Shown here: positions 8,148-64,000 of the stretch, one piece after another
Layout of the letters: the number at the start of each line of letters is the position of its first letter
Numbering within the stretch: position 1 is the stretch's first letter
Source: Patescibacteria group bacterium
GTDB taxonomy: Bacteria; Patescibacteriota; Patescibacteriia; Patescibacteriales; UBA12075
DNA: 64,000 bases
Reading direction: 5' to 3'
Assembly (NCBI GenBank): GCA_018897195.1
Contig: JAHILH010000001.1
Span: forward strand, 156,565-220,564
Position numbers and translations under genes: made by a program
Notes under the pieces: model-generated
What the model was told of the DNA's origin: nothing
Databases searched by the model: none
Seen by the model: only the letters and a program-made list of their open reading frames with translations

Positions 8148-10811
8148 ATGAATCTAGATAAAATCTTTAAACCGAAAAGAATTGCCGTTATTGGCGCTAG
8201 TAGTGAAGCCGGAAGTGTTGGTTTTGCTCTATTCCACAACATCATAAATAGCGATTTTAAGGGCACTGTGACGCCTGTTAGTCTGAAAAGGGATAAAGTA
8301 CAGGGTATTAAGGCGGTGAAGAATATCGGCGATATTCAGGAAAAACAGGATTTGGCGATTATTATAACTCCAGCCAAGACGGTGCCATCAGTCCTGGAAG
8401 AGTGTGGAAGAGCTGGAGTCGGTGGAGTAATTATCATTTCATCCGGATTTTCTGAAATGGGCAAGGATGGCGAGAAATTAAGTGCAGAACTAAAAGCAAT
8501 TGCTAAAAAATATAATATACGGATTTTAGGACCAAACTGTCTTGGATACATAAACCCAGCCTTAAAACTTAATGCCAGTTTTGCTGGTGCAACTGCAAAG
8601 AAGGGGAATATTGCCTTCATCTCACAGAGCGGGGCTTTGTGCACTTCAATTTTAGACTGGGCTAACAAAAACAATGTGGGCTTCTCATATTTTGTCTCAA
8701 TTGGCGAAATGGTGGATGTAAGCTTTCATGATTTGATTGATTACTTCGGTTCCGATCCAAATACAACTAGCATCTTGATTTATATGGAAACCTTAAAAGA
8801 CGCGCGCAAATTTATCAGTGCAGCGCGAGCTTTTTCAAAAGGTAAACCGATTGTTGTCCTAAAGGCTGGTCGTAGTGAAGAAGGAGCAAAAGCCACTAAG
8901 TCACATACTGGTAGCTTAGCGGGGAATGACAAAGTTTTCACTGCTGCCTTTGATAGAGCTGGTGTAATTCGCGTAGACACCGTTGTTGGCTTATTTCATG
9001 TGGCTAAAACTTTATCAATGCAATCACTTCCAAAAAGTAATCGCTTAGCAATTTTAACTAATGCCGGCGGTCCTGGTGTAATCGCCACCGATGCTTTGAT
9101 TTATTCAGGAGGTAAATTAGCCAATCTATCTCAAGGAACGATTACTGAATTGGACAAGGTTTTACCAAAGTCTTGGAGTCGAAATAACCCAATTGATGTA
9201 ATCGGTGATGCTGATGCAGATCGTTATGAAAAGGCACTGAAGATTTGTCTCCGCGATGATAGCATTGACGCCATCCTTATAATCCTTACCCCACAAGCAA
9301 TGACTGATCCAACCAAGGTAGCGAAGCGAATTGTAGAGATGACCAAAAAATCAAGCAAAACTATTCTAGCGAGCTGGATGGGCGGACAATCAGTAGCAGA
9401 GGGGAGACGACTTTTGGAATCTGGAAACATCCCAACTTATCGAGCACCCGAAGATGCAATAAATGCCTTTATGAATGTTCATAAATATTCTCGTAATCTA
9501 TCGATATTAAATGAAACACCATCATCTATTCCACACGCCTTTACCCCTAAGACTGATGAAAATAAAGAACTAATTAAGCGCGTAGTCGCTGAAGGACGAT
9601 ATTCCCTAAATGAAACGGAAGCCAAAGTGTTACTTGCAAATTATGAAATACCAGTAGTTAAAAATGGCTTAGCCAAAAACTCAATTGAAGCTGGTACGGT
9701 AGCAGCTAAAATTGGTTTTCCCGTGGTTATGAAAATTTTATCTCCAGATATAATTCACAAGGTTGATGTTGGCGGCGTTGTCTTGAATGTTAATTCCAAG
9801 AAAGAAGCTGAGGCTAATTTTGAAAAAATTATCAATTCTGCTCGGGCGCATTTTCCCAAGGCGCAGATTGACGGTATTTTTATCGAGGGCATGATTAATA
9901 AAAAATACGAGCTGTTGATTGGTTCTAAAAAAGATCCGATTTTTGGCCCAGTGATCGTCTTTGGAATGGGGGGTGTGGCAGTTGAGGTGTTTCAGGATAT
10001 CAAAGTCGGCTTGCCTCCATTAAACATGTCTTTGGCAATGAGATTGATCGAAGGCACAAAAATTTACAAACTTTTACAAGGTTACCGTAATATGCCTGGA
10101 GTTGATATTCAATCGATTCAATTTTTATTATATAAATTTGCTTACCTTATCGCCGACTTTCCGGAAATTAGCGAGATTGATATCAATCCTTTTGCCGTGG
10201 ATGAACATGGTGGCATTGTTTTGGATGCAAAGGTTATCCTAGACAAACAAGTGCTTAGTAAGCCAGTTAAGCCTTATTCACACCTAGTTATTTCTCCATA
10301 TCCAAAAGAATACATCTCTAGTGTAAAAACTAAGAGCAAGAAAAATATCACCATTAGACCAATAAGACCCGAAGATGAGCCAATGGAAGATGTGATGTTT
10401 GCTTCAATTATGGCGAGCACACATGAACATATCTTTTTTGATAAGATTAAAAACATAACCCATGATTTGTTAGAAAGATATGCGCAAATTGATTATGATC
10501 GAGAAATGGTATTAATTGTGGAAGGCACAAATGGTAAGCGTGTCGAAATGGCGGGCTTAGCTAGATTAATCGAGGATCCGAATAGCAACTCCGCTGAGTT
10601 TTCTTTCGTTGTGCCTGATGGTTGGCAGGGGAATGGTATTGGTGGTATTTTGGTTGATAAGATTTTAGAGGTGGCACGCGATAAAGGGTTTGAAAAGATT
10701 TATGCTAAGTTTTTGGCGCACAATAATCCGGCAACTGGTATTTTTACCAAGCGTGGATTTACCATTAGTAAAAAAGGTGAGATCGGAATTGCAGAATTGA
10801 CAATTAGTTAA
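8148..10811 (+). CDS. ADP-forming acyl-CoA synthetase-like / GNAT acetyltransferase fusion (Pat/YfiQ architecture)
   Basis: 887 aa. N-terminal CoA-binding motif KRIAVIGAS. Succinyl-CoA-ligase-like and ATP-grasp segments. C-terminal GNAT motif QGNGIGGILVDKILEVARDKG. Size and domain order match Pat-type protein acetyltransferases (about 886 aa). Confidence 0.88.
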   Translation: MNLDKIFKPKRIAVIGASSEAGSVGFALFHNIINSDFKGTVTPVSLKRDKVQGIKAVKNIGDIQEKQDLAIIITPAKTVPSVLEECGRAGVGGVIIISSGFSEMGKDGEKLSAELKAIAKKYNIRILGPNCLGYINPALKLNASFAGATAKKGNIAFISQSGALCTSILDWANKNNVGFSYFVSIGEMVDVSFHDLIDYFGSDPNTTSILIYMETLKDARKFISAARAFSKGKPIVVLKAGRSEEGAKATKSHTGSLAGNDKVFTAAFDRAGVIRVDTVVGLFHVAKTLSMQSLPKSNRLAILTNAGGPGVIATDALIYSGGKLANLSQGTITELDKVLPKSWSRNNPIDVIGDADADRYEKALKICLRDDSIDAILIILTPQAMTDPTKVAKRIVEMTKKSSKTILASWMGGQSVAEGRRLLESGNIPTYRAPEDAINAFMNVHKYSRNLSILNETPSSIPHAFTPKTDENKELIKRVVAEGRYSLNETEAKVLLANYEIPVVKNGLAKNSIEAGTVAAKIGFPVVMKILSPDIIHKVDVGGVVLNVNSKKEAEANFEKIINSARAHFPKAQIDGIFIEGMINKKYELLIGSKKDPIFGPVIVFGMGGVAVEVFQDIKVGLPPLNMSLAMRLIEGTKIYKLLQGYRNMPGVDIQSIQFLLYKFAYLIADFPEISEIDINPFAVDEHGGIVLDAKVILDKQVLSKPVKPYSHLVISPYPKEYISSVKTKSKKNITIRPIRPEDEPMEDVMFASIMASTHEHIFFDKIKNITHDLLERYAQIDYDREMVLIVEGTNGKRVEMAGLARLIEDPNSNSAEFSFVVPDGWQGNGIGGILVDKILEVARDKGFEKIYAKFLAHNNPATGIFTKRGFTISKKGEIGIAELTIS

Positions 10812-19022: not shown

Positions 19023-19090
19023 CCTCACCCTGTCCCCTTTATTATTAATCGGACGAGGATTACGTTAACCCTCTCCCGCCGGGGCGAGGG
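19023..19090 (+). repeat. GC-rich intergenic repeat, copy A
   Basis: cctcaccctgtcccctttattattaatcggacgaggattacgttaaccctctcc (19023-19076), followed by cgccggggcgaggg. The 54-nt core recurs at 63237-63290 with 5 mismatches. Confidence 0.6.
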
Positions 19091-20436: not shown

Positions 20437-21396
20437 TTATTTCTTTAAATCCTTACCACTGTGTAGTTTTTTGTGAATATCACGTAGTTGCTTATTGGTG
20501 ACATGAGTGTAGATTTGTGTGGTGGCAATATTGCGATGTCCCAAGAACTCTTGGACTATTCTTAGGTCAGCACCTTGCGAGAGTAGATCGGTGGCAAATG
20601 AGTGACGAAGGGTGTGTGGCGTAGCCATGATGGGGAGGCCGGAAATTTTGACGTATTTTTTAACAATATCTTCAACACTGCGAGTGGTCAAGCGCCTTGG
20701 GTTGTTAGTCTTGTCGATTCCTGGTTTGTAGTTGATAAAGAGAGCGTCGTCAAAATCATTTCGTTTATTTAAATATTTACGCAACCAATTAATTGTTCTC
20801 TCGGAGAAGTAAACTGTTCGGACCTTGCTGCCCTTGCCGACGACGGCAACTTCGAGTTCTTCGGTCGCGTCGTTGATTCGGAGTTGTTCTAGATTGAGAG
20901 AGGCAAGTTCAGCGACACGGAGACCAGTGGAGAAGAGGGTCTCTAGGATAGCTCGGTCACGTAGACCGATTATGGTTGTGACATCAGGTGTGAGCAAAAG
21001 TCTTTCTAGCTGGTCTAGTTTTAAAAATTTAATTTCTTTGTCTGACTTGTCCTTGGCGAGTTTGATTGAGCTTGGGGAAAGGGTAGCAATTTTTTTCTCA
21101 ACAAAAAAATCAAGCAAACTTCTGAGTGCGATAAGGTAATAATTCTGAGTAGTTTTTTTGAGAGATTTTTTGGTGCGGGGGTCAACAAAGCGGGAGAGGT
21201 AGACGCGGTATTTATAGACATGGTCAGTGGTTAACTGGCCAGGCTCGATTGTGTCCAAATCAACCTCGGCAAGCCACTTGAAGAACTTGGTTAAGAACCG
21301 GGAATAATTTTCTTGGGTCTTGGAAGAAAGACCTTTTTCGATCTCAATATAATCTAAATAGTCGGTAAGATATTTTGTAATTGGCTTATCAGTCAT
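20437..21396 (-). CDS. tyrosine recombinase, XerC/XerD family
   Basis: Motifs GLRVAELASL, HTLRHSFATDLL and LGHRNIATTQIYTHV supply the R..HxxR..Y catalytic set. An N-terminal SAM-like core-binding domain is present. Confidence 0.85.
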   Translation of the reverse strand: MTDKPITKYLTDYLDYIEIEKGLSSKTQENYSRFLTKFFKWLAEVDLDTIEPGQLTTDHVYKYRVYLSRFVDPRTKKSLKKTTQNYYLIALRSLLDFFVEKKIATLSPSSIKLAKDKSDKEIKFLKLDQLERLLLTPDVTTIIGLRDRAILETLFSTGLRVAELASLNLEQLRINDATEELEVAVVGKGSKVRTVYFSERTINWLRKYLNKRNDFDDALFINYKPGIDKTNNPRRLTTRSVEDIVKKYVKISGLPIMATPHTLRHSFATDLLSQGADLRIVQEFLGHRNIATTQIYTHVTNKQLRDIHKKLHSGKDLKK

Positions 21397-31534: not shown

Positions 31535-31542
31535 AATGCTTG

Positions 31543-31614
31543 TGATCCCTAGGAGAATCGAACTCCTGTTATCAGGATGAGAACCTGGTGTCCTAACCAT
31601 TAGACGAAGGGACC
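31543..31614 (-). tRNA. tRNA-Glu (anticodon CUC), no encoded CCA
   Basis: The reverse complement GGTCCCTTCGTCTAATGGTTAGGACACCAGGTTCTCATCCTGATAACAGGAGTTCGATTCTCCTAGGGATCA folds as a cloverleaf. Anticodon loop is TTCTCAT. T-arm is AGGAG-TTCGATT-CTCCT. Confidence 0.9.
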
Positions 31615-31676
31615 ATTTTTTGCGAAAATAAATAGCCCTATATGGGACTGTTGGTCGTGTGATTGTTATTAAATTG

Positions 31677-31748
31677 TGATCCCTAGGGGAATCGAACCCC
31701 TATTATCAGGATGAAAACCTGGTGTCCTAACCACTAGACGAAGGGACC
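31677..31748 (-). tRNA. tRNA-Glu (anticodon UUC), no encoded CCA
   Basis: The reverse complement GGTCCCTTCGTCTAGTGGTTAGGACACCAGGTTTTCATCCTGATAATAGGGGTTCGATTCCCCTAGGGATCA folds as a cloverleaf. Anticodon loop is TTTTCAT. Confidence 0.9.
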
Positions 31749-60392: not shown

Positions 60393-61154
60393 CTAGATCC
60401 ATCGCGCCGTCAAAAGAGCTATTGAGACACTTATTAATCCAAAAATAAGATACATTTTAACCTTTTCCTTGCTTAAGTTTCCAAATAGATAGAATCTAAT
60501 CAACCCAATTAAAACATAAAAACTAATCGTTAATATAAGTCCTAAAATATAGTAGCTTAATGTTAAAAAAGAGATCCCCCAGGCTAATTCTAGCACAATC
60601 AAACTTAATAGCAAGCTATAAAAAAAGCTTGTTTGTTTGTTAATTTCACCAGACCAGGATATTTGAAAAACGATTAAAAATACAACTCCGGCTAGAAGTA
60701 TTATTAATTTCCAAATAGCGATGTCGAGAAAAAGCTGAAGGCCAAAAAAAGATACTGCCATAAAATAAAAGGCGAGAAAATTACCATAAGTGGATAAGTT
60801 TTCCATCTTTTCCTTTTGAAACAAATCCAGTTTTAAAAAGTGATAATATAACATCTTGAAATAATAATATAAAAAAATCAAATTAACTAAAAATAGAACA
60901 TGAACCACCCATTTATTTATAATAAAAAAAGAAACAAAAACAGAGCCAAAAGTGAATAGAATTGGTAATGAAATCGTATTAATTATGTTATCTTTTTTAC
61001 CTGAAGCATAGGCAAATTGTCTGGCAAGGAAAAAAAATAAAGAAAATATTATCACTAAAATAACAAAAACAGATTTAGGATAAAATGAATATATTTCCAA
61101 GAAGATAAAGGATAAAACCGGGACAATTAATGTTAAAAATTTATTGTATTTCAT
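60393..61154 (-). CDS. polytopic membrane protein, unknown function
   Basis: 253 aa with about 8 TM segments. Confidence 0.55.
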   Translation of the reverse strand: MKYNKFLTLIVPVLSFIFLEIYSFYPKSVFVILVIIFSLFFFLARQFAYASGKKDNIINTISLPILFTFGSVFVSFFIINKWVVHVLFLVNLIFLYYYFKMLYYHFLKLDLFQKEKMENLSTYGNFLAFYFMAVSFFGLQLFLDIAIWKLIILLAGVVFLIVFQISWSGEINKQTSFFYSLLLSLIVLELAWGISFLTLSYYILGLILTISFYVLIGLIRFYLFGNLSKEKVKMYLIFGLISVSIALLTARWI

Positions 61155-61215
61155 ATGATTAATATCATTAGTTTAGCAAAAAATCAAGAAAATTAAAAGG
61201 GTCATCTGTCAAGTT

Positions 61216-61247
61216 AAAAAAAACCGAGCCTTTTTCGCCGGGCCCGG
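61216..61247 (-). terminator. terminator of the hydrogenase-like transcription unit
   Basis: On the minus strand, CCGGGCC pairs with GGCTCGG (plus-strand 61241-61247 and 61224-61230) with one G-U pair. U8 follows. Confidence 0.55.
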
Positions 61248-61272
61248 TGATTTTTGTAAATATGTAAATTGA

Positions 61273-61413
61273 TTATTCGTAGAGAAAGCAGATTTTATTC
61301 CTAGTCTTAACCAAGTAATATCGAGACACTCTTTTGATAAAGAGCTCAAAATTTCCATTATTAGCTATATCAACCAGACGAAGAGAAATGATTGATACAA
61401 ATAATAATTTCAT
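61273..61413 (-). CDS. possible 46-aa ORF downstream of the hydrogenase-like gene
   Basis: My translation: MKLLFVSIISLRLVDIANNGNFELFIKRVSRYYLVKTRNKICFLYE. A weak GAGAGG lies upstream. It is below the ORF-track cutoff. Confidence 0.2.
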   Translation of the reverse strand: MKLLFVSIISLRLVDIANNGNFELFIKRVSRYYLVKTRNKICFLYE

Positions 61414-61565
61414 AAAGCCTCTCAATCATCACTTGGTATCCAAGGAGCAATTTGTAATCTGCTTACATAATTGAATATAGCAATGAAAAATTAAGAAAAG
61501 GTTAAATTTTAAAATTGTTATATTTTTCCCAACATTACGATGGTTATAGAACTACAACTCTGGAT

Positions 61566-63194
61566 TTATGAGAACAATATTTTATTTACCAAATTATTGC
61601 TTTCTAACCACTCCAAGATATCCACAATCTGTCCATCTAATTTTTTTTGATTAAAATTCTTTGGTAATTTCTTGGCTAAAAATGCGTGTTTGCGTTTTTT
61701 GCGCAACTCTTTCGTTGTAGGAATTGGCTGACCACCTCCACCAAGGCAACCGTCGGGGCATGACATAATTTCCAAATAGCTGTATTTTTCCAAGTGATTA
61801 ATGATTTTATTAACCTCACCAATCCCCTTCAGCGATGCCAATTCTTTACCACTTTCATTTTGCAACAACAAAACTTCATCTAGATTGTGGATGTTTTGTT
61901 TGCCATCGACCTTGGTAATTTGATTAGCCAATTTTAAGCGCCCTAATATTGATGCAAAAACACTAGTGGAAAATAAATCTGCTAATTCATTATTTAGTGA
62001 ATCGATATTTTTTATTTTGCTTTTAGTTAAATCAAGTTTATGTTTTTTTAATAAAAAAGAGAGTTCACGCAGAGTTAGAACATAATCAACTGGCCACAAG
62101 CCATTGAACTGCATTTTCTTTTCCACAATTTCATTTTTTCTTGCCACGCAAACACCGATACTTATTACTGAAATTTTTTCCGGGTCCAGCTTTTGCTTGT
62201 CCGCCCAATAAGTTTTTATTAAACCCCCCATAACCATAGCCGGTGATTTAATTTTTTGTAAATTTTTTGCCAAGGCTGGTTGGTATTGTTTGATGTAATT
62301 AACTGTAGCTGGACAATGAGAGCCGATCATTACTTCCCCGCCGTTGTTTTCTAAAATGTGTTCAGATTGAAGGTGTGCATTAATCTCGACACCAAGTGCG
62401 GAATTAAAAACATAATTAACACCCATTTGTTTTAGAGCGGCTGCCACTGAATTTAATTCTATATTTTTCATGTCAAAATTCTCACCAATGCTAAGCTCCA
62501 TTATTGGATCTAGAATTACCACCACAGTTTTTTGTTTATCTTTTATTTCCCGTTCCAGGTCCTCGTAATTAGTTTGCTCTTGAATGGCACTAACTGGGCA
62601 ATGAAGCGCGCATTGACCGCAAAGAATACAGGGATTTTTTTTGCTATCTTTAAAATCAACTTCTTGACCATGGCCTTTGCCACGCATCACTAAGCAGTCA
62701 AGTTTTTGTAAGTCCTGACAAGCGGAAATGCAATTACGGCAATCAATACATTGTGTGCCATCAATCTCTAGCGCATTTTTAAGTTTATGAATTTGGCGAT
62801 TCTTTTTGCGATCAGTAAAACGAACGATTTTAGTTTGGTATTTTTGAGCAAACTCTAATAGCTTGCATTCAAAACGCCAGACGCAAGTCGCGCATTTTTC
62901 CACGTGCTCAGCGTAAATCAATTCAATATTTACATTGCGGACTTTTTTAATTTTATCAGATTCGGTCATGATTTCCATACCCGCACTTGCCTTAGTGGAA
63001 CAAGAGGTTACCAGTTTATTGTTACCTTTCACTTCTACGACACAAACACGACAATTGCCCTTGGCACAAAAATCCTTGTGGTGGCAAAGGGTTGGTATTT
63101 CAATTCCATTTCGTTCAGCCACTTCCAAAATAGTCTCGCCCTCCGTGCCAGTCATTTTTTGATTGTTGATTTTAAGTTTAATTTTATTTATCAT
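61566..63194 (-). CDS. [FeFe]-hydrogenase-like protein (2Fe-2S + 4Fe-4S ferredoxin domains + divergent H-cluster domain)
   Basis: N-terminal 2Fe-2S fold (CHHKDFCAKGNCRVCVVEV). CIDCRNCISAC and CILCGQCALHCP. H-domain motifs GSHCPAT, IGVCVARKNE and EIMSCPDGCLGGGGQPIP. Confidence 0.85.
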   Translation of the reverse strand: MINKIKLKINNQKMTGTEGETILEVAERNGIEIPTLCHHKDFCAKGNCRVCVVEVKGNNKLVTSCSTKASAGMEIMTESDKIKKVRNVNIELIYAEHVEKCATCVWRFECKLLEFAQKYQTKIVRFTDRKKNRQIHKLKNALEIDGTQCIDCRNCISACQDLQKLDCLVMRGKGHGQEVDFKDSKKNPCILCGQCALHCPVSAIQEQTNYEDLEREIKDKQKTVVVILDPIMELSIGENFDMKNIELNSVAAALKQMGVNYVFNSALGVEINAHLQSEHILENNGGEVMIGSHCPATVNYIKQYQPALAKNLQKIKSPAMVMGGLIKTYWADKQKLDPEKISVISIGVCVARKNEIVEKKMQFNGLWPVDYVLTLRELSFLLKKHKLDLTKSKIKNIDSLNNELADLFSTSVFASILGRLKLANQITKVDGKQNIHNLDEVLLLQNESGKELASLKGIGEVNKIINHLEKYSYLEIMSCPDGCLGGGGQPIPTTKELRKKRKHAFLAKKLPKNFNQKKLDGQIVDILEWLESNNLVNKILFS

Positions 63195-63236
63195 ATAAAA
63201 ATTATATACACTAATTAATCTTCTTCGCCCGTTCTA

Positions 63237-63306
63237 CCTCACCCCGCCCTCTTTATAATTAGTCGGACGAGGATTACGTTAACCCTCTCCTGCAAAGGAG
63301 AGGGAT
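63237..63306 (+). repeat. GC-rich intergenic repeat, copy B
   Basis: cctcaccccgccctctttataattagtcggacgaggattacgttaaccctctcc (63237-63290) matches copy A at 49 of 54 positions. The hairpin CCCTCTCC-tgcaaa-GGAGAGGG ends at 63304. Confidence 0.6.
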
Positions 63307-63370
63307 CTATTACCCAACGCCGATTATAAATAAAAAAATTGTTTTTTAAAGGAAGTAATATCTACTAGTT

Positions 63371-63404
63371 CCCTCGCCCCGCCGGGAGAGGGTTAGGGTG
63401 AGGG
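63371..63404 (-). repeat. inverted short form of the GC-rich repeat (copy C)
   Basis: ccctcgccccgccgggagagggttagggtgaggg. Its reverse complement resembles copy A with the internal segment of about 35 nt removed. Confidence 0.5.
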
Positions 63405-63408
63405 AACA

Positions 63409-64000
63409 TTAAATATATTTCTCCTCACTATAATATGGATAAACAATCGACACCATGGCTCCAACCAAGAAATACCAAATAAAATCTTCGATTGGAATCC
63501 CAATAAATAATATCCCTGACAACTTCTCCAACATCCAGGTGTGTTCAACCCAACCAGGAGAAACGAATATCATCAACAAATAAATCGGCAACGAGATCAA
63601 TATCATCATTACCCCGCTCATTAAAGATATTTTAATCAAATCCGTACGTTTTATTAAAATGTAAATAATGGCTGTCAAAATTCCAATCGAATTAGCGTAA
63701 AAAGAATTCCAATCAAACATTTTGAATAAAACCAATGTGATAATTCCTGTAGAAATTAGTGGAATTGCAATGCGCGCCCAACTTGCCTGTCCTCTGCTTT
63801 TAATTTTTAAAAATAATAAATACCAAATCGCTGCAATACCAGCATTACTAAAACCTAATAAAAAATCTTCAACACCGACACGATAGCCGAAGATAGTTTC
63901 CGGTCGCCACCAGTCGGCAGTATAGACCAGCCCGAAAGTAACTCCCAAAATGGCATACAATAAACTAATCAATAACAATCTTTGACGATATTCTTTTAAT
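63409..64000 (-). CDS. membrane protein with two lycopene-cyclase-domain-like motifs (probably 5'-truncated by the window edge)
   Basis: Polytopic. GVEDFLLGF and IPIEDFIWYF resemble the PxE(E/D) motifs of CrtYc/Yd-type lycopene cyclase domains. The frame stays open upstream of the TTG at 63978 to the window end. Confidence 0.5.
   Translation of the reverse strand, partial: LKEYRQRLLLISLLYAILGVTFGLVYTADWWRPETIFGYRVGVEDFLLGFSNAGIAAIWYLLFLKIKSRGQASWARIAIPLISTGIITLVLFKMFDWNSFYANSIGILTAIIYILIKRTDLIKISLMSGVMMILISLPIYLLMIFVSPGWVEHTWMLEKLSGILFIGIPIEDFIWYFLVGAMVSIVYPYYSEEKYI

Follow-up and report, generated by a model that had tools for sequence, protein, structure and literature searches.

An uncultured Patescibacteria/Parcubacteria bacterium encodes, near one end of a 64,000-nucleotide stretch of its genome (GCA_018897195.1, contig JAHILH010000001.1, positions 156,565 to 220,564; hereafter, the window), a full-length HydA homologue of the clostridial (M3) type that, in our judgement, is quite likely not a working hydrogenase. 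The hydA-like coding sequence (61566..63194, minus strand) begins with ATG and specifies 542 amino acids. The explanation that we favour, with some reserve, is that its product transfers electrons as a hydrogenase-like subunit of an NAD(H)-linked oxidoreductase and is an M3 HydA that no longer carries or uses the [2Fe] subsite of the active site. The case bears on metabolism reconstructions of uncultured candidate phyla radiation (CPR) bacteria, in which the presence of an [FeFe]-hydrogenase homologue is routinely taken as evidence for H2 production.

The remodelled H-domain

An earlier note, made by reading the sequence by eye, had given this open reading frame (ORF), which lies at exactly these coordinates, and a clostridial-type domain order, which is borne out by Pfam. 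From the N terminus (all coordinates on the minus strand), the protein has a [2Fe-2S] domain (residues 4-79; 62958..63185; Fer2_4, E 1.8e-20) with ligands Cys37, Cys48, Cys51, and Cys65 plus an additional Cys43; a His-ligated [4Fe-4S] region of NuoG type (residues 86-122; 62829..62939; His97, Cys101, Cys104, and Cys110); a 2x[4Fe-4S] ferredoxin-like domain (residues 144-205; 62580..62765; Cys149/152/155/159 and Cys189/192/195/199), matched by Pfam 4Fe-4S dicluster models; and the H-domain, Fe_hyd_lg_C (PF02906; residues 222-487; 61734..62531; E 6e-48, 164 bits against a cut-off of 22). The match of the His-ligated region to NADH-G_4Fe-4S_3 (PF10588) is sub-threshold, and the assignment is backed by the alignment to the CpI/HydA structures and by invariant columns. 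Judged by Cys and His positions, all ligands of the four accessory iron-sulfur (FeS) clusters are present. The C-terminal tail of canonical HydAs, which resembles Fe_hyd_SSU, is not present in the query.

The closest solved structures are the HydA subunits of electron-bifurcating HydABC (7q4v, 8a6t, 7p5h) and CpI, with E values from 1e-77 to 6e-62. An AlphaFold2 model of the protein (predicted local distance difference test, pLDDT, 88.6; predicted template modelling score, pTM, 0.90) aligns in Foldseek with full-length HydA and CpI at template modelling scores of 0.85-0.87, and in this model the HydA/CpI fold is intact. The scores against NCBIfam hydrogenase models are far under the cut-offs (NF040763, 364.6 vs 765; TIGR02512, 208.1 vs 405.95; NF040762, 276.9 vs 900). 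For canonical Patescibacterial HydAs the nearest NCBIfam model is “NADH-dependent [FeFe] hydrogenase, group A6.” The identical database protein (P0001, from “Candidatus Parcubacteria bacterium”) is labelled at NCBI only as “2Fe-2S iron-sulfur cluster-binding protein.”

The state of each active-site motif was taken from HMMER alignments to solved HydA structures and from hmmalign column mapping, and is given in CpI numbering. These alignments agree with the by-eye reading in the earlier note of GSHCPAT, GVC, CVARKNE, and DPIME. The changed positions are A230D, S232I, E279Q, E282H, C299H, S319Q, Q325A, M353G, P354V, and K358R; P231, C300, C355, M497, C499, and C503 are unchanged. DPIME (residues 229-233; 62496..62510) replaces APSVR (CpI 230-234) in both the motif table and the alignments. 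The segment aligned to the proton-transfer helix reads AHLQSEHILEN (62346..62378), in which E279 is Gln276 and E282 is His279 by column mapping, and R286 is Asn283 by ungapped pairing in the HMMER alignment. At L1, GSHCPAT (residues 291-297; 62304..62324) stands for TSCCPxW: the proton-relay Cys299 has become His293, the cubane ligand Cys300 is retained as Cys294, and besides Cys294 only the S and the P of the motif are left. At L2, GVCVARKNE (residues 347-355; 62130..62156) stands for MPCxxKxxE (MPCTAKKxE) and carries M353G, P354V, and K358R; the cubane ligand is retained as Cys349, and apart from this C only the E is kept. Where canonical proteins have the segment (I/L)(F/Y)GxxGGVMESALR, the motif table gives LFSTSVFASILGRL (61935..61976) for the query; the GGVMES loop is lost, and about 25 residues are deleted downstream. 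L3, EIMSCPDGCLGGGGQP (residues 475-490; 61725..61772), is near-canonical, with one A-to-S change against the signature ExMACxxGCxxGGGxP and with Met477, Cys479, and Cys483 retained. The only Cys in the H-domain are the four at the cubane-ligand positions (294, 349, 479, and 483), which the earlier note had supposed to be retained. Going by these alignments, the residues that would pack on, hydrogen-bond to, and feed protons to the di-iron subsite are replaced.

Changes of this sort had been likened in the earlier note to those of sensory or non-catalytic relatives. The second of these comparisons is favoured by the evidence and the first is not: the Pfam scan found no PAS or output domain in the protein, and there is no Cys beyond residue 483, hence no C-terminal Cys cluster. 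A sensor of H2 or redox state of the HydS type (group C/D), acting in the regulation of gene expression, would explain why the proton-relay Cys is replaced, as it is in HydS. However, the context tables list no regulator, kinase, or phosphatase among the neighbours, the architecture is M3, and the nearest relatives are HydAs of the catalytic type, so we regard a sensor as highly improbable.

Relatives and selection

Of the 120 homologues that score best in the database, 112 have the canonical form of every motif (APSIRVS, E..E..R, TSCCPxW, SRSP(Q/H), MPCTAKK(Y/F)E, GGVMES, and MACPGGCIGGGGQP) and eight are degenerate. Those of the 120 with a named source are mostly from Patescibacteria, Parcubacteria, or Falkowbacteria. 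The degenerate set consists of the query, P0002-P0005 (71-83% identical to it), the fragment P0082, P0016, and P0060. The query, P0002-P0005, and P0082 share motifs of the form DP(I/V)(M/I)x or DQIIE, (G/S)S(H/Q)CPA(T/F), and GVCVARK(N/E/T)E; P0016 has TSDCPSF and SPCVAKKYE, and P0060 has ISRCAGV and APCTAKKFE. The four cubane Cys are kept in all eight. Position 299, by comparison, is H, Q, D, or R, and pocket positions vary between sub-lineages; the only derived pocket residue that is invariant across the seven full-length degenerate proteins is Asp229 (A230D). The additional Cys43 was considered as a marker of the degenerate clade and rejected, given that it is also found at the canonical loci L010, L021, and L023.

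Overall identity of the query to canonical Patescibacterial HydAs (e.g., P0009, P0011, P0014) is 44-48%. In a neighbour-joining tree rooted on CpI, T. maritima HydA, and T. kivui HydA, which took in no verified HylA sequence, the eight degenerate proteins form one clade in 200 of 200 bootstraps, 11 nodes inside the canonical Patescibacterial HydAs, and their distances to the outgroup are 1.5-1.9 vs 1.11 for canonical proteins. The earlier note had offered clustering with ordinary group A hydrogenases as a result that would overturn its reading, but this is a false dichotomy: judged from the protein sequences, the query clade is nested among the canonical group A HydAs and is at the same time fast-evolving and derived.

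The accessory domains and the H-domain have fared differently. Identity to canonical HydAs is 58% in the FeS domains and 38% in the H-domain, whereas the corresponding values among canonical proteins themselves are 69% and 71%. In the comparison with P0002, the FeS domains have a pN/pS (nonsynonymous over synonymous divergence) of 0.048/0.76 and the H-domain one of 0.118/0.78. The H-domain ratio is thus about 0.15; synonymous sites are saturated, and pN is 0.05-0.21 across comparisons. The gene is under purifying selection and is not decaying. A functionless, decaying relic would account for the accelerated evolution of the H-domain and the lost active-site motifs, but intact degenerate ORFs are present in six or more 90%-identity clusters, as well as in remoter lineages, synonymous sites are saturated while pN stays low, synteny and gene overlaps are conserved, and the AlphaFold2 model is confident. 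We give this explanation very little credence.

That pocket residues differ between sub-lineages, with only A230D shared, fits relaxation after loss of the [2Fe] subsite and is not what a conserved alternative catalytic site predicts. It could also be taken to mean that the protein serves as electron-input module to a soluble ferredoxin:NAD+ oxidoreductase in which the H-domain is a structural vestige, its cubane a dead end, and electrons pass only between the N-terminal clusters and the FMN of a NuoF-like partner. In favour of this are the much stronger constraint on the FeS domains (in both pN and identity), the free drift of the pocket, and the intact NuoF-like partner encoded nearby (see below). 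On the other hand, purifying selection on the H-domain is clear, the four cubane Cys and L3 are invariant, and a mere vestige could have been deleted, as many HydA relatives are without whole domains. We think a pure vestige unlikely, and in any case it is a sub-case of the electron-transfer explanation rather than a true opposite.

Loss of the proton-relay Cys is not confined to the query clade. A profile of the clade was searched against 1.84 billion cluster representatives, and among the best 150 matches, 123 are near full length. Fifty of these 123 (~40%; the proteins are representatives of 50%-identity clusters) are without Cys at position 299 and have H, S, N, F, A, D, T, G, or other residues there; in the same 50, A230 is mostly S or D, and M353 is mostly T, S, A, V, or G. 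All four cubane Cys are retained in 41 of the 50. Most of the 50 are nearer to some canonical HydA than to one another, from which it follows that M3-type HydA has degenerated repeatedly; part of the 50 are probably of the HylA type. Identity of the query to most other degenerate representatives is 24-35%, rising to 41-44% for P0146, P0147, and P0149, which are additional Patescibacteria-like degenerate lineages. The same search returned P0145, a predicted protein of 4122 amino acids with seven separate profile-matching stretches and a near-canonical H-domain (FTSCCAGW, MPCTVKK); it may be a giant multi-domain hydrogenase-like protein or else an artefact of gene calling.

Gene neighbourhood, maturases, and flanking DNA

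The window ends 806 nt upstream of the hydA-like gene, and the earlier note accordingly missed the decisive context, a NuoF-like gene and a glyceraldehyde-3-phosphate dehydrogenase (GAPDH) gene in a conserved cluster, both of which lie just beyond that end. Over 12,435 nt, the metagenomic contig L001 matches the window without a single mismatch, and it carries the sequence on by a further 9.2 kb. Upstream of the hydA-like gene (L001:10001-11629) and on the same strand, it encodes, in this order, GAPDH (L001:6785-7801, by annotation), a 372-amino-acid NuoF-like protein (L001:7954-9072; Complex1_51K and NADH_4Fe-4S by Pfam), and a membrane protein of 221 amino acids with about six transmembrane helices that belongs to the lycopene-cyclase domain family (PF18916; L001:9121-9786). 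The last of these corresponds to 63409..64000 of the window (minus strand), where only its 3' part is seen (ORF 63409-63978) because the start is beyond the window end. Wherever a Patescibacterial locus, canonical or degenerate, is covered far enough on the upstream side, the order is GAPDH, NuoF-like, HydA or HydA-like, and the gene order of the query locus is repeated for P0002, P0016, and P0060; the P0005 contig begins within the NuoF-like gene and gives no view of the GAPDH region. At a related locus, L004, neighbouring genes overlap by 4 and 11 nt, a sign of an operon; overlaps are also seen in L006.

The NuoF-like partner keeps the FMN/NADH motifs GRGGAGFPT, EGEPG, and GGEESAL and the four Cys of the N3-type [4Fe-4S] cluster (ESCGQCVPCREG...SLCGLG). 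No NuoE/HydC/HylC-like gene accompanies any GAPDH/NuoF-like/HydA cluster in the window, the L001 extension, or the related loci, and neither annotation tables nor Pfam scans revealed a formate dehydrogenase gene in the same three sets. Judging from position and sequence, the query is the positional orthologue of the HydA of a two-subunit hydrogenase module that is presumably NADH-linked.

On the explanation that we favour, the HydA-like and NuoF-like proteins would form an NAD(H)-linked oxidoreductase. NADH from the adjacent GAPDH would be oxidised at the FMN of the NuoF-like subunit, and electrons would pass through its [4Fe-4S] cluster into the FeS chain of the HydA-like protein. Without the di-iron subsite, protons could no longer serve as the acceptor, and the electrons would have to go elsewhere: to a ferredoxin-type carrier that docks on the distal clusters, or to a partner or substrate bound at the remodelled H-domain, perhaps at the membrane by way of the co-transcribed protein of the lycopene-cyclase family. 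The reverse flow, from ferredoxin to NAD+, is equally compatible. In either direction H2 would be neither produced nor consumed. It is also conceivable, though we consider it rather improbable, that the H-domain has become a new active site in which the cubane, Asp229, and His/Gln293 in the vacated pocket reduce a non-proton substrate with electrons derived from NADH; such a reaction may take place at the membrane together with the same lycopene-cyclase-family protein. Were this true, some Patescibacteria would possess an unrecognised glycolytic NADH sink that replaces H2 evolution.

The membrane protein itself is a poor guide. A small membrane-protein gene between the nuoF-like gene and hydA is frequent but not diagnostic. 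The lycopene-cyclase-family gene precedes all five of the degenerate loci seen first and was considered a hallmark of the degenerate form, a suggestion that we dropped on finding it before canonical HydA in L045; homologues are located elsewhere in L043 and L044. A second, unrelated polytopic family (269/293 amino acids, no Pfam match, mutual E 1e-41) takes the same place between nuoF-like and hydA in degenerate L046 (the P0146 locus) and canonical L010. The lycopene-cyclase-family protein has two (V/I)EDF motifs, VGVEDFLLGF and IPIEDFIWYF, and 24 homologues at E<=1e-5, some beside hydA and others near ATP synthase or cytochrome b5. The organism is not one expected to make carotenoids.

The maturase genes are a second line of genomic context. 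The window holds no radical-SAM or HydF-type gene (every ORF of at least 100 amino acids was Pfam-scanned or annotated), and tblastn with Patescibacterial queries gave no HydG, HydE, or HydF match in the window, the 9.2-kb extension in L001, or the degenerate loci L004-L008, L011, and L046. The absence of hydE/F/G from the window, as reported in the earlier note, therefore holds, although by itself it says little because most canonical loci are alike in this respect. Over the 785 kb searched by tblastn, matches were confined to L012, L015, and two Syntrophomonas loci. In L012 (11846-15648) and L015 (3578-7296), NCBIfam models identify hydG-hydE-hydF directly downstream of canonical hydA, with HydG (TIGR03955, 559 bits) and HydE (TIGR03956, 306 bits) above cut-off and HydF (TIGR03918, 319.4 bits vs 325.55) slightly under it. 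This shows that some Patescibacteria at least encode the full maturation set. Radical-SAM genes near L007 and L010 were considered as HydE/HydG candidates and set aside: one has an RlmN-like N terminus, the other gives only a weak generic match, and neither gives a tblastn match to HydG or HydE. The absence of maturases from degenerate loci agrees with loss of the [2Fe] site and is no proof of it.

Several points weigh against the electron-transfer explanation. L3, Cys503, Pro231, and Met497 are retained, and K358R is a conservative change. Loss of Cys299 alone is no proof of H-cluster loss, given that group C/D enzymes, with Ala at this position and no group A proton pathway, retain H-cluster binding and slow turnover (PMC10407848). 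No acceptor or catalytic partner was identified in this analysis, and the membrane-protein link is non-specific (one family before a canonical HydA in L045, the second in both L010 and L046). Most canonical Patescibacterial loci are also without adjacent maturases (only L012 and L015 have hydGEF within their flanks), and the maturase search on the query's own contig covers ~74 kb of 565 kb. Finally, the tree is distance-based, with long branches, and its outgroup sequences were typed from alignment printouts.

Some of these points would suit a genuine but atypical [FeFe] hydrogenase that binds [2Fe], uses His293/Asp229 as an alternative proton relay, and makes H2 slowly from NADH. To them may be added that the relative P0016 has Asp at position 299, that a C299D variant of CpI has been crystallised (PDB 6GLZ), and that the GAPDH/NuoF context is shared with canonical enzymes. 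However, more than 10 pocket and relay positions are changed together, and the GGVMES loop is lost with them; pocket residues vary by sub-lineage, which is unexpected for a conserved alternative active site; maturases are missing from every degenerate locus and adjacent in two canonical ones; and the scores are under the hydrogenase model cut-offs. We consider an atypical hydrogenase unlikely, though the main rival, and the electron-transfer subunit remains our preferred explanation.

For CPR metabolic annotation, where the main consequence lies, the query clade is a protein set that passes the PF02906 domain screen yet almost certainly cannot work as a normal hydrogenase, and genome surveys should leave the query out of counts of H2 producers. 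With ~40% of the best-scoring representatives lacking the proton-relay Cys, the problem may be widespread and H2 production overestimated. A concrete question that the case raises is how the NADH that the neighbouring GAPDH makes is re-oxidised in these minimal fermenters.

The DNA on either side of the hydA-like gene has features of its own. A 214-bp spacer with GC-rich repeats and hairpins (63195..63408) separates it from the membrane-protein gene, whereas in relatives the two genes overlap by ~10 nt, which marks the spacer as an insertion. The repeat CCCTC(G/A)CCCCGCC occurs at 63236-63248, 63371-63383, and 19078-19090 on the minus strand (three copies vs 0.04 expected), and inverted repeats could form hairpins (e.g., 63280-63312 with 63363-63395). 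The spacer resembles a small repeat element of the intergenic kind that was inserted into the operon; an Rfam search of 61100-63500 gave no match. The earlier note had pointed to a TATAAT 6 nt before the ATG, with GC-rich repeats directly upstream. Both are there, but the promoter scan does not list this TATAAT, because it has no acceptable -35 element, and thus gives it no support as a promoter. The best site of the scan (63350->63323, minus strand) is inside the spacer, and the total of 10 promoter-like sites is not above the 8.1 +/- 2.7 expected by chance. In relatives, the overlap of the gene start with the upstream gene suggests expression as an operon.

Downstream of the hydA-like gene, a 410-nt stretch is conserved at the DNA level far above the synonymous sites of the coding sequence. 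Within it, between the hydA-like gene and a DUF5656 gene, is a conserved non-coding element of ~250 nt (61215-61470, minus strand) with long invariant runs and with copies in relatives (L004:11769-12035; L006:3085-3365). It contains no conserved ORF. The predicted fold is a rod-like hairpin of ~180 nt followed by an intrinsic terminator (minimum free energy -69.8 kcal/mol, z -4.95), and a three-sequence alignment has seven compensatory pairs. Rfam gave no match at E<=1, and nhmmer matches are confined to the loci of close relatives. We regard the element as a candidate new structured RNA, whose 6S-like shape is only an impression.

Elsewhere in the window are an ADP-forming acetyl-CoA synthetase fused to a GNAT domain (8148-10811, plus strand; 887 amino acids), which is consistent with a fermentative, acetate-forming lifestyle; a recombinase of the XerC/phage-integrase family (20437-21396, minus strand); and two adjacent tRNA-Glu genes with CTC and TTC anticodons (31542-31748, minus strand).

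Comparison with known systems

The system most similar to the query is the canonical Patescibacterial group A HydA, with which it shares the M3 domain order, the accessory ligands, and the GAPDH/NuoF-like/HydA neighbourhood. The differences are that canonical proteins have APSIRVS, E..E..R, TSCCPxW, MPCTAKK[YF]E, GGVMES, and the Fe_hyd_SSU-like tail, none of which the query has, and that two canonical loci, but no degenerate one, carry hydG-hydE-hydF downstream. Judged by sequence, the query is derived from group A HydA but no longer qualifies as one, because L1, L2, and the family cut-offs all fail. Literature searches, with most subscription journals outside their coverage, returned no description of the Patescibacterial degenerate clade or of the GAPDH/NuoF-like/HydA cluster.

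Variation at L1 also takes another form. In the HydAs of L026-L042 (from Syntrophomonas, Spirochaetia, Bacillota, and other metagenome-assembled genomes), L1 reads TSCSPGW, with Ser at the Cys300 position, and a new Cys stands beside the KSPQ motif in (T/S)CKSPQQM. The solved A. woodii HydA1 (7q4v) also has TSCSPGW. The pattern suggests a relocated cubane ligand in this subgroup.

The putatively sensory HydS proteins of groups C and D (TmHydS and TamHydS) bind the H-cluster and turn over H2 despite replacement of Cys299 (PMC10407848). The query shares with them the replacement of Cys299 and of most of the group A proton pathway. It differs in having many more pocket positions changed, and it has neither the PAS domain of group C nor the atypical C-terminal [4Fe-4S] cluster of groups C and D, which in turn are without the M3 N terminus and carry there [4Fe-4S] clusters only.

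The eukaryotic Nar1/NARF (IOP1) proteins, which act in cytosolic FeS assembly, have the H-domain fold and keep the cubane site, with no [2Fe] subsite and no maturases; here, the hydrogenase scaffold has been reused for FeS and electron-handling tasks. They have a different N-terminal cluster domain and no NuoF-type partner. We see no specific relationship, as the nearest relatives of the query are bacterial HydAs.

A closer functional counterpart is HylA, which is described as a HydA homologue without conserved L1-L3, with a proposed role in electron transfer (PMC6085437), and as the hydrogenase-like part of the HylABC-FdhF2 formate dehydrogenase found in Clostridium acidurici and other Firmicutes (Wang et al. 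2013, as cited in PMC6085437 and PMC5861303). Both proteins are HydA homologues that have lost active-site motifs, kept the FeS Cys motifs, and are co-encoded with a NuoF-type flavoprotein. Degenerate L1/L2 and a conserved cluster with a NuoF/HylB-like gene might even make the query an orthologue of HylA within an electron-bifurcating formate dehydrogenase, but this is very doubtful. HylA is accompanied by HylC (NuoE-like) and FdhF2 and is reported as a single clade limited to Firmicutes (PMC6085437), whereas the query has neither partner gene at its own or related loci and nests in Patescibacterial HydAs; its identity to most other degenerate representatives is low (as given above), it retains L3, and it has a minimal 372-amino-acid NuoF-like partner and an interposed small membrane-protein gene. 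We infer that the query functionally parallels HylA but probably arose independently. On this account, it would represent a second, independent conversion of a hydrogenase to an electron-transfer module after HylA, in a compact and conserved operon context.

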